A stretch of DNA of 32,474 nt from a virus. Lineage: Duplodnaviria > Heunggongvirae > Uroviricota > Caudoviricetes. Below are positions 4,333 to 9,655 of the stretch, piece by piece. Position 1 is the first letter of the stretch, and the number at the start of each line of letters is the position of its first letter. The notes below the pieces were generated by a model, which saw only the letters and a list, made by a program, of their open reading frames with translations, made no database searches and had not been told where the DNA came from. Location: the IMG/VR virus record IMGVR_UViG_2554235297_000015. One strand, given 5' to 3'. The translations under genes and the position numbers were made by a program.

Positions 4333-4566
4333 ATGCATCAGGATATCAAAGAGTACAGGGCTGGGAACCGTTGCGCAGCGTATTCGCTGGGCGCGTCCAG
4401 AGCAGAACAACGCGGCGATTATGCCGAAGCTGAAAAACTGTGGCGTAAGGCAGCACAAAGCCCGTGTAGTACCCTGCGCCGCATCTGGGCGGAACACCGG
4501 GCAGAGTTCTGTGCCAATGCTCACCTGAAAGGATGGAAGCCGCCTCATGAACGCGAAACGCTTTAA
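4333..4566 (+). CDS. hypothetical early protein, 77 aa
   Basis: ATG 4333 preceded by AGGGG with a 6 nt spacer, two bases after the upstream stop. The ORF-track start at 4243 overlaps the upstream gene and is less likely. Confidence 0.5.
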   Translation: MHQDIKEYRAGNRCAAYSLGASRAEQRGDYAEAEKLWRKAAQSPCSTLRRIWAEHRAEFCANAHLKGWKPPHERETL

Positions 4567-4738
4567 TCAGCTATATCCGCCAGGGACTCGCTTCATGCAC
4601 ATTGCACATCGGGCAGTGCGTGGTGGTCGGGTGGTAAAAACTGTTGCACCTGCCAGAGATTTTAAATGTGGTTGTGTGGTTGAAATTAATGTCGAGCCTT
4701 ATTTCGTTAAAGTCGAAACACTGAAAGCACCGCATTAA
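4547..4738 (+). CDS. hypothetical early protein, 63 aa
   Basis: Start overlaps the end of the upstream gene. No family recognised. Confidence 0.4.
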   Translation: MNAKRFNQLYPPGTRFMHIAHRAVRGGRVVKTVAPARDFKCGCVVEINVEPYFVKVETLKAPH

Positions 4739-6657: not shown

Positions 6658-6793
6658 GAGTCTGACCAGACTGATTGCCGATGCGGACAAGGTGCTGGAG
6701 CGGAACTCCCCCGTTGCCGATGAGGAATGGTGGCAGGATTTCCGGGCTGCAATGCTGGAACTTCAGGAACGTCGTCGGGAGGTGTTGAAGTGA
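6629..6793 (+). CDS. hypothetical early protein, about 54 aa
   Basis: GTG 6629 preceded by AGGAGA with a 6 nt spacer. The ORF track opens at 6590 in the same frame. Confidence 0.4.
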   Translation: MSQQTRISDKSLTRLIADADKVLERNSPVADEEWWQDFRAAMLELQERRREVLK

Positions 6794-7059
6794 GTGAATT
6801 AAAGTGTCGAATTAATGGCAATCAGATAGAACCGTGTGCGGTACTGGCAAAAGCACTCGAATATGGAAATCCAGCCTTTAAGAGTAAAGGCATATTTATC
6901 CCGGAACGCGTGAATATAAACACCGGCGAGCCAGGCTTAGACATTGCTCAAATTCACTCCGGCCAATATGTCGGTCGTGGTGTTGCCATGTGTTTTTGCC
7001 CGTTCTGTGGTGAAAGTCTGAAAACATGGAAAAAGGAGGCAACCAGTGAGCGAGATTAA
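6790..7059 (+). CDS. hypothetical Cys-rich protein, possible zinc ribbon, about 89 aa
   Basis: GTG 6790 preceded by GGGAGG with a 7 nt spacer, GTGA overlap with the upstream stop. Contains CxxxxxxxxxC and CPFCG. Confidence 0.45.
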   Translation: MSELKCRINGNQIEPCAVLAKALEYGNPAFKSKGIFIPERVNINTGEPGLDIAQIHSGQYVGRGVAMCFCPFCGESLKTWKKEATSERD

Positions 7060-7543
7060 CTATCAGGCACTGCGTGAGGTGGCAGAGGCCGCGAAGGGGG
7101 ATACGACGTGGCAGAACCTACAGGCTTTTCATGCTGCGGCTACGCCGGAGGTTGTGCAGGCGTTGCTGGATGAAAACGAAAGACTGTGTCGCGATCTGAT
7201 AGCTCGTAATGGTGAGATTGAAGGGCTTCGGGAGTGGGCAGAAGAACTGGAGGCACGGGAGGTGGCTTTGCCAGTAGCGTCATGCATTGTTGAAGATGGA
7301 TGCATGTGTGTTGATGGGTTCAGTGAGTATGTAGGTCACTCGCTACCTGATGGAATGCATGAGCTTTATGCTGCCCCGCCAGCGTCGGTAGTGCCGGAAG
7401 GACTAGTTAAAGCAGTGCGTTTCTATGAACAGGTAAAGTGTGAGAATCCGCCAGTCGAAACCGGAGCATGGAAAGACGCGGTTGACTGGGTACTCAACGA
7501 GGCTTGCCAGGCTGTAAATATTGACGCCAAAGGAGGTGCGTAA
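7046..7543 (+). CDS. hypothetical protein, possibly Ead/Ea22-like
   Basis: GTG start preceded by AAGGAGG. N-terminus ALREVAEAAKGDTTWQ...AATPEVVQALLDENERL resembles the Ead/Ea22 prophage family. The family call is from memory. Confidence 0.5.
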   Translation: MSEINYQALREVAEAAKGDTTWQNLQAFHAAATPEVVQALLDENERLCRDLIARNGEIEGLREWAEELEAREVALPVASCIVEDGCMCVDGFSEYVGHSLPDGMHELYAAPPASVVPEGLVKAVRFYEQVKCENPPVETGAWKDAVDWVLNEACQAVNIDAKGGA

Positions 7544-7712
7544 TGCGTGTAGCGTTTATCGGTTTATTACCATACCCGACTCGTTTTTGGGCTTCTGCGC
7601 TAATTGCAAAGCCACATGCCCTGATGGCTGACAGCATCATCCCGGCACAAAAGCGCCATACCGGTATTGCTGCTGCACGACGCGAAGCAAAGAAACGCAG
7701 GAGAGCAAAATG
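7544..7712 (+). CDS. small basic protein, 56 aa
   Basis: Not in the ORF track (below its size cutoff). TAATG overlap with the upstream stop, ATGA overlap with the downstream start. Confidence 0.3.
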
Positions 7713-7898
7713 ATGAAAAACCGTAAGGCAAGACTGCTGATAGCAAAGCCAGGGCAACTTATCCGTATCTCAAATCGACTTGTTGTTCACTATAGATATC
7801 TTGGTTTTAGGGAGTGGTCCTCTATTCGTTTTTACGGTGTCTGGCGAAACAGAAGCGCGACACAAAACCGCTGGAAGAATCACACTAACGCAAAGTAA
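7710..7898 (+). CDS. hypothetical early protein, 62 aa
   Basis: AGGAGA upstream of the ATG. Confidence 0.4.
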   Translation: MMKNRKARLLIAKPGQLIRISNRLVVHYRYLGFREWSSIRFYGVWRNRSATQNRWKNHTNAK

Positions 7899-7915
7899 TT
7901 AAATAATAACCAATA

Positions 7916-7943
7916 GCAGACCAAAAAGTATTTTTTGGTCTGC
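7916..7943. promoter_or_regulatory. perfect 12 bp-stem palindrome (GCAGACCAAAAA gtat TTTTTGGTCTGC)
   Basis: Seen directly in sequence, followed by a second short inverted repeat CCAAAA-N6-TTTTGG (7943..7960). Lies in a 60 bp gap after the run of small early ORFs. Confidence 0.45.
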
Positions 7944-7956
7944 CAAAAGTGATGTT

Positions 7957-8244
7957 TTGGTCATTATGAAGATTGAACAAATCGGAATGGCAGCTTTCAG
8001 GCAACAGGCTGAAAGCGGTGGCGTGGATGAGTTCGTCGTGCAGCGGTTCGGTGGTGTGTATCATCTATTCGCTGTGAATCGCCGCGCCGGGGTGTCCTAT
8101 TTTCTACAGGAACGTCGTGGCGATTACAAGACATGGCTGTCTCTTGACCGTGCCGCTGCGTTCTTGTCAGGGATTGGCGTTTCACGTTTTACCGTGCGTT
8201 TTGAGGATAACAAACATGCTGAAAAAGATGATCGGGGCCATTAA
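7957..8244 (+). CDS. hypothetical protein, 95 aa
   Basis: ORF whose 3' end overlaps the gemA start. Alternative start ATG 7966. Confidence 0.4.
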   Translation: MVIMKIEQIGMAAFRQQAESGGVDEFVVQRFGGVYHLFAVNRRAGVSYFLQERRGDYKTWLSLDRAAAFLSGIGVSRFTVRFEDNKHAEKDDRGH

Positions 8245-8614
8245 AGCCGGTCAGGCGTATCTGGGGTGGGATGATGCCCTTTATCGCCAGACGCTGGCCC
8301 GCCTGACCGGTAAAACCAGCACCACACGCTGCAATCTCGATGAACTGCGCATCATCCGGGAATACATGCACGAACAGGGATTCCCGCGCAAGGCACCCGC
8401 TGGTAAAGGTCGCCGCCCTCGTGTTGCAATGAGCAGAAAATCAGTATTATCCAAAATTGAAGCGTTGCTGGCTGATGCCGGTCGTTCCTGGGCGTATGCA
8501 GAAGGACTGGCATCTCACATGTATAAGCAACATGTGATCGAATGGCTGACGGATGAACAGCTTTTTGGAGTGATGGTGGCGCTGGTTAAAGATTCAAGAA
8601 GGAGAAATCAATGA
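8216..8614 (+). CDS. gemA: GemA-like protein (Mu gp16 family)
   Basis: N-terminus MLKKMIGAIKAGQAYLGWDDALYRQTLARLTGK resembles Mu GemA. GAGGAT 7 nt upstream of ATG 8216. The ORF track opens the same frame earlier at 8117. Confidence 0.75.
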   Translation: MLKKMIGAIKAGQAYLGWDDALYRQTLARLTGKTSTTRCNLDELRIIREYMHEQGFPRKAPAGKGRRPRVAMSRKSVLSKIEALLADAGRSWAYAEGLASHMYKQHVIEWLTDEQLFGVMVALVKDSRRRNQ

Positions 8615-9087
8615 TGAAAAAATGGTTGTTTTGTTTAGTAGGGGTTATTTTCTCTTGTTCTGTGCTGGCACAGACAGAGGAACAGGCGCAAAAGGAACTG
8701 AAACGTTATCAGGATATGAAGCCATTGGCTGAACAGATGCTTCGGGAAAGTGGAAAACTTTATTACGCTATGCCAGAAGCTGCATCGCAGTATCAGCAGG
8801 GAAATATTGAAGAGTGGAAGAATATCAAAAAAGGACTAAAACAACTGGATGAACAGGCCAGTAAACTGGGGGACGACCCGCTTGATCCTGTGTATGGTTC
8901 CTGCATAAAAATGAAAAACCAGCTACAGGATTACTGGTCTAACGTTATCAGGGATGACAGGCAGTTTCTGGAGCGTTCAAGAAATCAGTTTAAAGAATAT
9001 CGTATGGATTGTTTTGATTCGTTTGTTTTTGGTAAAGAGCAAATAGAATCAAGAAAAGGCCTGGTTATTCTAGACCTGACTAAATAA
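8611..9087 (+). CDS. secreted or periplasmic protein of unknown function, 158 aa (AT-rich moron)
   Basis: AAGGAG RBS. N-terminal signal peptide MMKKWLFCLVGVIFSCSVLA with an AxA-like cleavage site before QTEE. Coding sequence is clearly more AT-rich than the flanking genes. Its own terminator follows. Confidence 0.7.
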   Translation: MMKKWLFCLVGVIFSCSVLAQTEEQAQKELKRYQDMKPLAEQMLRESGKLYYAMPEAASQYQQGNIEEWKNIKKGLKQLDEQASKLGDDPLDPVYGSCIKMKNQLQDYWSNVIRDDRQFLERSRNQFKEYRMDCFDSFVFGKEQIESRKGLVILDLTK

Positions 9088-9098
9088 GACTTAGTTTA

Positions 9099-9125
9099 GC
9101 CCCTGCCATGCAGGGGCTTTTTTTG
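9099..9125 (+). terminator. rho-independent terminator
   Basis: GCCCCTGC catg CAGGGGC stem-loop followed by TTTTTTTG. Confidence 0.8.
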
Positions 9126-9130
9126 TGGTC

Positions 9131-9158
9131 TGTACAGGCGATCATGTATGGCTATAAT
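9131..9158 (+). promoter_or_regulatory. candidate sigma70-type promoter for the Mor/C gene
   Basis: TGTACA (9131..9136), 16 bp spacer, perfect TATAAT (9153..9158), about 30 nt upstream of the ATG at 9188. Confidence 0.35.
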
Positions 9159-9187: not shown

Positions 9188-9655
9188 ATGCAGACCTTCA
9201 GTGAAACAGATCTTCGCGATGCGCAGGCACTGCTGCCCGATTCCGTGCAGCAACTGATTAGCGTGATTGGCTTCCCCGCCCTGACCCGGTTGATTCGTTC
9301 TTTTGGTGGCGTGACGTTAAGCGGTAAAACCGGCGTACACGCCGAACGCACCGGCGGTGTCCATGCCCTGTTACATGACGTGCTCACCGAAGACGAAATC
9401 AACAAACTGATCCGCTTTCTTGGCGGTGCTCCGTTTTACATTCCCCGTTGCGATCATGCGTTACGTGCCCTGCGTAACACCCGTTTTATGGCTGATTTAC
9501 AGCAGCATGTAAAAGACGGATGCTCACACCGGCAGGCGCTGGCACTGCTCTGTCCCCGTTACGGCATTTCAGACCGGTACGCATGGCAGCTGATACACCG
9601 ACGACAAAAACAGACTTCGCTGAAAAGCCCCACCCAGGTGGGGCTTTTTGATTAA
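9188..9655 (+). CDS. Mor/C-family transcriptional activator (Mu middle/late activator family)
   Basis: 155 aa. C-terminal HTH-like segment ...RQALALLCPRYGISDRYAWQLIHRR typical of Mor/C proteins. Located between gemA and the lysis genes as in Mu. GGAGA RBS. Confidence 0.7.
   Translation: MQTFSETDLRDAQALLPDSVQQLISVIGFPALTRLIRSFGGVTLSGKTGVHAERTGGVHALLHDVLTEDEINKLIRFLGGAPFYIPRCDHALRALRNTRFMADLQQHVKDGCSHRQALALLCPRYGISDRYAWQLIHRRQKQTSLKSPTQVGLFD
9627..9649 (+). terminator. rho-independent terminator overlapping the last codons of the Mor/C gene
   Basis: GCCCCAC ccag GTGGGGC stem followed by TTTTT. Confidence 0.6.

Follow-up and report, generated by a model that had tools for sequence, protein, structure and literature searches.

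A selected, single-copy palindromic element leads the 92-aa/gemA module of a Mu-like Escherichia coli prophage

The DNA considered here, the 32,474 nucleotides (nt) of IMG/VR virus record IMGVR_UViG_2554235297_000015 (the window), is identical to sequence of Escherichia coli O127:H6 E2348/69 and carries a Mu-like prophage inserted in eutC. Its genes follow one another on the + strand in the order ner-like, Mu-type transposase, AAA ATPase, small accessory open reading frames (ORFs), a gene for a protein of 92 amino acids (aa), gemA, a 158-aa gene, mor, holins, and endolysin. Within this rightward early operon, a 67-nt gap directly before the 92-aa gene contains a perfect palindrome, which is a real, selected, single-copy cis-element and the leader of the 92-aa/gemA module. 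The early operon of Mu and of Mu-like phages starts with ner, A, and B, continues with the accessory genes, and extends to gemA and mor; in Mu, as in a Mu-like Pseudomonas phage that was studied by RNA sequencing, this entire stretch forms a single early operon (PMC2582627; PMC9936078). Such an operon organization implies that the gap, too, is transcribed.

The gap (7899-7965) is bounded on its left by the last small ORF of the accessory run (7710-7898, + strand, 62 aa; phrog_1380, E = 4e-10), which has a good ribosome-binding site (AGGAGA) and overlaps the gene before it by ATGA. This ORF is unannotated in the RefSeq/PGAP record, leaving an apparent gap of 250 nt, and is replaced by other genes in relatives. 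On its right is the 92-aa gene (7966-8244, + strand; phrog_7844), the 3' end of which overlaps gemA (8216-8614, + strand; Pfam GemA, PF06252), its partner in the downstream module. The ATG at 7966 has no recognizable Shine-Dalgarno sequence in the E. coli clade. The 92-aa protein belongs to a small family of 13 clusters and has no Pfam domain; its predicted model is an alpha/beta fold resembling eL38 or the FtsH N-domain.

An original prediction, made from the sequence alone, had described a perfect inverted repeat in a noncoding gap, followed by a second, shorter one, and each part of that description holds. The first repeat (7916-7943) is composed of a left arm GCAGACCAAAAA (7916-7927), the loop GTAT (7928-7931), and a right arm TTTTTGGTCTGC (7932-7943), giving 12 perfect base pairs; the second consists of CCAAAA (7943-7948) and TTTTGG (7955-7960) around a spacer of six nucleotides (N6), with C7943 common to both. 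According to a repeat finder, the palindrome at 7916 is the longest inverted repeat of the window. If arms of 12 or more and loops of 0-8 are required, three loci there have perfect inverted repeats (7916, 9623, and 29604), as compared with 0.03 per dinucleotide shuffle.

Beyond what was originally described, the element includes a four-hexamer array, an outer complementarity that takes in the start codon, and a co-conservation with the downstream gene. The array has the form CCAAAA-N6-TTTTGG-N4-CCAAAA-N6-TTTTGG, in which the hexamers H1 (7921-7926), H2 (7933-7938), H3 (7943-7948), and H4 (7955-7960) are spaced 6-4-6; it can also be viewed, without regard to strand, as two tandem 22-bp dyads (7919-7940 and 7941-7962, together 7919-7962). 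The array motif occurs once in the window, and the three exact GACCAAAA octamers found in these 32 kb all fall inside one 45-nt stretch of the array. The whole unit spans about 65 nt (7903-7968) and ends at the ATG of the 92-aa gene. Its outermost segments could form a further helix on the + strand, the left arm of which (AUAAU.ACCAA, 7903-7913) begins just 3' of the upstream stop codon (7896-7898) and pairs with a right arm (UUGGU.AUUAU, 7957-7967) that shares bases with H4 and also covers A and U, the first two positions of the start codon. Inspection of the + strand also reveals a possible mini-ORF of six codons, (A/G)TG TTT TGG TCA TTA TGA (7952-7969), with an ATG or GTG start in 23 of 23 haplotypes, no Shine-Dalgarno sequence, and a stop codon that overlaps the ATG of the 92-aa gene (ATGA). 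An N-terminally extended ORF of 104 aa, starting from an ATG at the center of the palindrome, was rejected, this codon being ATT in E2348 and the frame being lost elsewhere.

Conservation in related prophages, the check that had been proposed for the palindrome, proved strongly positive, and the element is therefore functional rather than a chance palindrome. It stands directly upstream of the 92-aa gene in every relative retrieved. A 551-nt query matches 83 of 5426 E. coli genomes and the 59-nt element alone matches 58 of the 5426, with a median of one copy per genome and at most two, and with an identical annotated context in all matches listed. Further relatives carrying the element are found on 20 IMG/VR contigs and 7 metagenome contigs; a protein search of the GenBank phage collection gave no match. 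The genes upstream vary among these relatives: homology to E2348 starts at 7854 or at 7898-7903, or has an interruption of about 500 bp upstream, and the element has been kept across at least four different upstream recombination contexts. As it is kept while the upstream gene changes, it belongs with the downstream gene.

Other classes of repeated or structured element were considered as well. A dispersed extragenic palindrome, whether of the repetitive extragenic palindromic (REP) or bacterial interspersed mosaic element type or similar to a miniature inverted-repeat transposable element, is ruled out by the presence of about one copy per genome, the constant context, and the uniqueness within the window. 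Iterons of a replication origin were rejected, there being only two units, no rep gene, and Mu-type transposase genes; a true 22-bp iteron array that matches the pattern (L065) is unrelated in sequence. A search against the covariance models of Rfam 15 (E <= 10) gave nothing relevant, the best match being Plastid-psbA-2 with 19 bits against a gathering threshold of 55.8 (E = 3).

The pattern of variation among 24 haplotypes shows where the constraint lies. In the core, 3 of 39 columns are variable, for a nucleotide diversity (pi) of 0.008, as compared with 0.0175 at codon positions 1-2, 0.097 at third codon positions (50 of 93 columns variable), and 0.19 in the two N6 spacers (9 of 12). Core diversity is thus 12-fold lower than that of third codon positions and 24-fold lower than that of the adjacent loops (Fisher p = 2.4e-7 for core versus third positions and 1.3e-5 for core versus spacers), so that the element must be regarded as under selection. 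The stem together with the 33 nt leading up to the ATG is as constrained as codon positions 1-2, and both loops drift. H3 and H4 are invariant in 23 haplotypes around a hypervariable spacer, and the segment H2-TCTG-H3 (7933-7948) is invariant in all haplotypes. Most relatives have a perfect 28-bp palindrome with the halves GCAGACCAAAACAT and ATGTTTTGGTCTGC, from which E2348 differs by a compensatory pair of changes, C>A and G>T at paired positions, and by an A>G change that gives a G.U pair.

These same data bear on the idea that the palindrome is a functionless relic, the 3' end of an ancestral upstream gene perfected into a palindrome by a template-switch (quasi-palindrome) mutation. One frame through the element reads [N/D]Q...[F/Y]G.PK in all lineages, and in Leminorella-type prophages the Q...FG.PK frame is the C terminus of a real Cys-rich ORF ending 16 nt before the ATG; correction of a palindrome can, moreover, produce apparent compensatory changes without selection. 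Given the depression of core diversity below that of third codon positions and adjacent loops, and retention through at least four upstream recombination contexts, this explanation is nevertheless very improbable. The Cys-rich ORF of the Leminorella-type prophages is 124-134 aa long (L029 2611-2985, L026 2581-2985, L027 2593-2985), includes H1-H3, and terminates 16 nt short of the 92-aa gene homologue. The N-terminal half of this ORF has a weak homologue at 4541-4681 of the window, and on another contig (L008) a homologue of the Cys-rich ORF is placed downstream of the 92-aa gene homologue.

As RNA, the 28-nt palindrome is predicted to fold into a hairpin of -16.1 kcal/mol in E2348 (z = -7.0) and of -18.4 kcal/mol in the consensus (z likewise about -7). 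The second repeat (7943-7960, + strand) gives a weak hairpin of -3.8 kcal/mol. In an 80-nt context, the + strand reaches -22 kcal/mol (z = -4.3) and the - strand, the more stable of the two, -26.5 kcal/mol (z = -5.5). The intercistronic gap thus holds a fold more stable than that of shuffled sequence, as is expected of a structured mRNA element. Pairing in the stem is kept in 97-98% of cells of the haplotype alignment, with one compensatory change, C:G to A:U in E2348, and one-sided changes of the G.U type at pairs 27-52 and 30-49. The outer helix (7903-7913 with 7957-7967) is paired in 93% of cells over 23 haplotypes even though it lies in the most variable flank, a value not significant against shuffles. 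No conserved sigma-70 promoter was found upstream of the 92-aa gene on the + strand in nine E. coli-clade loci and six distant relatives, nor any conserved promoter on the - strand; the best antisense candidate within the 92-aa gene, CTGCCA-19-CATAAT, is poor, and the idea of an antisense small RNA was dropped for this reason.

Hairpins at the corresponding position recur in other Mu-like clades. In a survey anchored on GemA, a sister clade with GemA 62-65% identical was found to carry a hairpin of unrelated sequence (GCAGGCACT-loop-AGTGCCTGC), which occupies the whole interval from the upstream stop codon to the Shine-Dalgarno sequence of gemA. This hairpin (-26.7 kcal/mol) has a hypervariable loop and no U-tract on either strand. 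Wobble changes in its left arm, C>U and A>G, preserve pairing on the + strand, and its outer helix, GTCATTA/TAATGAC, shows a compensatory change from C-G to U-A, so that the compensatory support is clearer here than in the E. coli-clade element. Homology between the two was considered and discarded, no similarity being found above that of shuffles. In Mu itself, a GC-rich palindrome, GGCGGTG-ttgcag-CACCGCC (Mu 8193-8212), lies 20 nt before the gemA ATG. The recurrence of unrelated hairpins at the same boundary points to a punctuation device of general use, not one particular to this prophage. The gap before gemA in Mu (L064 2397-2733, equivalent to Mu 7896-8232) also holds an annotated - strand gene, Mup15, and in several GemA-bearing contigs (L164-L166) the corresponding gap has one to three copies of a REP-like palindrome, CCCCTC(C/T)CCC-N4-GGG(G/A)GAGGGG, 80-160 nt upstream of gemA.

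The reading tentatively preferred for the E. coli-clade element is that of an intercistronic stem-loop or structured leader in the early mRNA, which would modulate the stability, processing, or translation of the downstream segment. It is favored over recognition of the duplex as an operator, a reading that survives beside it, because of complementarity extending beyond the hexamers, the compensatory change in E2348, the promoterless intercistronic site, and the positional analogues. The unit 7903-7968 would act in the + strand early polycistronic mRNA as the leader of the 92-aa gene/gemA module. On transcription from the early promoter, a hairpin of 12-14 bp (-16 to -18 kcal/mol) would form, and weaker flanking pairings, either H3 with H4 or 7903-7913 with 7957-7967, would enclose the start codon that lacks a Shine-Dalgarno sequence; enclosure of this codon could then set the level of translation of the downstream 92-aa/GemA segment. 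The hairpin may also serve as a decay barrier or a processing point, with cleavage by RNase E in the AU-rich segment 7896-7915 or by RNase III on the helix, and would in that case allow the accessory-gene and gemA segments to differ in stability.

The element is proposed not to terminate + strand transcription. The doubt originally raised about a simple terminator is borne out for this strand, as the palindrome has no U-tract, lies in mid-operon, and is called as a terminator only on the - strand. A stable hairpin at the end of the accessory ORF run might be taken for a terminator, or for an attenuator, by which early transcription is stopped or reduced ahead of gemA, and one distant GemA clade (L162/L163) does have a true terminator directly before gemA. 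On the + strand, however, the stem is followed by CAAAAGUGAUG (tail CAAAAGTGATG), with no U-tract; a scan with a terminator consensus gave no + strand call in three genomes; the operon continues on this strand into the 92-aa gene and gemA without an intervening conserved promoter; linkage of the element is to the gene downstream of it and not to the one upstream; and a canonical conserved terminator lies further on, just before mor. Such a function on the + strand is accordingly very unlikely.

Termination on the - strand fares slightly better. Here, the palindrome would block leftward transcription, antisense or reading through from the host, into the accessory and transposase region, and it is relevant that the prophage lies inside the eut operon in an orientation in which host transcription would enter antisense. 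The conserved flank TAATCAA would supply a U-rich tail, UUGAUUA, the base of the stem is GC-rich, and the fold is the more stable one on this strand. The scan made its calls on the - strand only, in E2348 (14 pairs, tail TTGGTTATTA) and in a type-C relative whose upstream context differs. With 4-5 U in 8, the tail is no more than moderately rich in U, and there was no call in a GF75-type (type-B) relative. Furthermore, the part of the module to the right contains neither a gene on the - strand nor a sequence resembling a promoter on it; the sister-clade hairpin at the equivalent position lacks a U-tract on both strands; the region is coding in some relatives; and this reading explains neither the linkage to the downstream gene nor why H3, H4, and the nucleotides from there to the ATG do not vary. 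A - strand terminator is thus improbable as the function of the element. Of the three roles originally suggested, the bidirectional terminator is reduced to at most a weak one on the - strand, and the RNA processing site and the protein-binding operator are both still viable.

The terminator before mor (9098-9118, about 1.15 kb past the palindrome) consists of AGCCCCTGC-CAT-GCAGGGGCT and a following T7, and is kept in all E. coli-clade relatives examined, with a different hairpin at the same spot in GF75. It is followed by a promoter-like sequence, TGTACA-16-TATAAT (10/12), and this arrangement of terminator and promoter (9098-9158) is conserved in all E. coli-clade relatives. In Mu, mor overlaps gemA in the early operon, unlike the situation here, so that Mor may have its own promoter or need read-through. 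The 158-aa ORF between gemA and the terminator (8611-9087) has an N terminus resembling a signal peptide, is present in only some relatives (E2348 and 20KM0223N), and has the appearance of a moron, inserted as cargo. At the 3' end of mor, about 1.7 kb past the palindrome, is another perfect 12-bp palindrome, AAAAGCCCCACC-GG-GGTGGGGCTTTT (9623-9648), which resembles a terminator acting in both directions and may correspond to the early terminator of Mu.

The terminator before mor is of interest in connection with a further form that an RNA function might take, a two-state switch in which pairing of H1 with H2 and H3 with H4 alternates with pairing of H1 with H4 and H2 with H3, gating translation of the 92-aa/gemA segment or modifying RNA polymerase. 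The GF75 haplotype is predicted to adopt the alternative fold. Such a switch is most unlikely. In its polymerase branch, by analogy with the put RNAs of HK022, early transcription would read through the strong terminator at 9098-9118, and Mor synthesis, and hence the lytic cascade, would be coupled to the element. The E. coli clade has both a strong hairpin and a terminator before mor, and three distant relatives have neither; a link between hairpin and terminator was rejected, as no terminator is seen after gemA in the sister clade, which has a hairpin of its own.

A more substantial alternative to the intercistronic stem-loop, although still a rather unlikely one, is that of a tandem DNA operator, in which two 22-bp dyads with centers two helical turns apart would be bound on the duplex by a putative dimer-of-dimers regulator, from phage or host, to form a roadblock or an architectural site before the 92-aa/gemA module. 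Invariant hexamers with free N6 spacers are what is expected of conserved half-sites at fixed spacing around a variable center, and in seven lineages, some of them without a stable hairpin, the CCA/TGG cores are spaced strictly 6-4-6. H2-TCTG-H3 is invariant while the left outer arm varies, and inspection shows that in most lineages the dinucleotide after H2 equals that after H4 (TC/TC, TG/TG, CT/CT, or TT/TT). The motif is unique within the window. In addition, the same two-unit architecture with other spacers is found in a lambdoid prophage fragment, in a promoter-like region upstream of a phd/doc-like toxin-antitoxin pair, and an E. coli relative has a one-unit version exactly 22 bp shorter, but this match could be a coincidence following a 22-bp duplication. 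Across the different upstream contexts, no conserved promoter overlaps or adjoins the element. No candidate binding protein emerged; only the 92-aa gene always co-occurs, and its fold is eL38/FtsH-N-like, not helix-turn-helix or ribbon-helix-helix. The operator of the prophage's own c/ner region, GGATAACAC-N4-GTGTTATCC, was examined and found to have no similarity to the element, and the repressor is of the CI type. The complementarity that extends beyond the hexamers (GCAGA/TCTGC), together with the compensatory change in E2348, points to selection on pairing, and the analogous elements in sister clades are of unrelated sequence.

In the lambdoid fragment (L038 5942-5981), the array reads CCAAAA-GTGTTG-TTTTGG-CTTA-CCAAAA-CGATCG-TTTTGG and lies between a terminator-like hairpin and the phd/doc-like (Fic) pair; the shorter version, in E. 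coli SMN013SH2 (L066 ~2640-2660), is a single hybrid unit. The fragment also shares an Ea22-region segment with 6736-7180 of the window. A search of IMG/VR for GACCAAAA-N6-TTTTGGTC led to an 82-kb contig of 68% GC (IMGVR_UViG_3300035661_000038; L067-L089) with about 16 copies of GAC-GACCAAAA-N6-TTTTGGTC-GTC, mostly just 3' of stop codons; these are probably an unrelated terminator-like repeat of that phage itself and were not used as evidence. Comparison with consensus sequences, made by eye only, gave no fit to IHF, Fis, sigma-54, or hix/gix sites.

Several observations weigh against the preference for an RNA stem-loop. Covariation is weak, with a single compensatory pair and with values at least equal to those observed in 80-109 of 500 shuffles, and the wobble changes leave the strand undecided in the E. 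coli clade, 7 types fitting the + strand and 5 the - strand. Only the E. coli clade has the strong hairpin. The distant relatives (Intestinirhabdus, Leminorella, and metagenomic contigs, with 62-76% protein identity) keep the hexamers and their 6-4-6 spacing, yet their folds are no better than those of shuffles (z from -0.6 to -2.2), a pattern more in keeping with sequence-specific recognition than with structure. There is no variation in the right arm and the TCTG spacer but some in the left outer arm, so that the constraint exceeds that of simple pairing. In three relatives, H1-H3 lie inside the 3' end of the Cys-rich upstream ORF, and the deep conservation may partly reflect coding or shared ancestry. 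Finally, a search of the literature and supplements for transcript maps of the E2348/69 Mu-like prophage yielded nothing usable.

Two other features of the window are recorded here. Among the early accessory genes of this EPEC prophage, 4333-4566 encodes a small protein annotated in RefSeq as ANR-family (AraC negative regulator), for which there is no Pfam match at E <= 0.01. At 18075-18105, about mid-prophage, there is an AT-rich near-palindrome, AATCGTTTTTAAAA / TTTTAAAAACGGTT, at approximately the place where Mu has its strong gyrase site.

Whatever its mode of action, this selected cis-element marks a boundary in Mu-like prophages between exchangeable accessory genes and the gemA/mor module, a region whose control is essentially unstudied. 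If the element sets the amount of GemA, and indirectly of Mor, made from the early transcript, it would be part of the timing of the lytic cascade. At 28 nt and with natural compensatory variants, it is also a compact and mutable object for testing.

Comparison with several known systems helps to place the element. The prophage's own terminators before mor (9098-9118) and after mor (9623-9648) are likewise perfect or near-perfect hairpins of similar stability (-17.1 versus -16.1 kcal/mol for the element). In these, 9-12 GC-rich pairs are followed directly by T6-T7, whereas the upper stem of the element is rich in A/U and no T-tract is present on the + strand. Among DNA sites, tandem dyad operators with a 22-bp period are bound by tetrameric regulators, as in the four-element sites of the OxyR/LysR type. 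The element shares with them two dyads with centers 22 bp apart, conserved half-sites, and free spacers; unlike them, it has no promoter overlap, and no cognate protein was found. To our knowledge, its half-site sequence fits no described regulator.

Within the Mu family, the com-mom mRNA has a stem that inhibits translation. In that system, as may be the case here, the start codon is held in a helix just downstream of an upstream ORF, and the likeness extends to the Cys-rich character of the upstream ORF, the 3' end of which overlaps the element in some relatives. The locus is different, however, there is no sequence similarity, and no gene for a Com-like activator is adjacent in the E. coli clade. 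Hairpins processed by RNase III between the early genes of T7, and the N-leader and sib sites of lambda, provide a further precedent in which early polycistronic phage mRNA is punctuated by conserved hairpins. The helix of the sister-clade analogue is about 19 bp with an internal loop, but that of E2348, with its 12-14 bp, would be a short substrate for RNase III unless lengthened by stacking of the outer arms, and cleavage is only a candidate activity here.

Intercistronic stem-loops that establish differential stability of mRNA segments are known from the REP hairpins between malE and malF and from hairpins of the puf and pap operons. Like the element, these are stable, have no U-tract, and lie between cistrons of one operon, with conserved stems and free loops. 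REP sequences are dispersed and present in many copies, whereas the element is single-copy, found in one prophage family, linked to its downstream cistron, and extends to the start codon. By likeness to the REP, puf, and pap hairpins, it may be expected to act as an exonuclease barrier or decay boundary.
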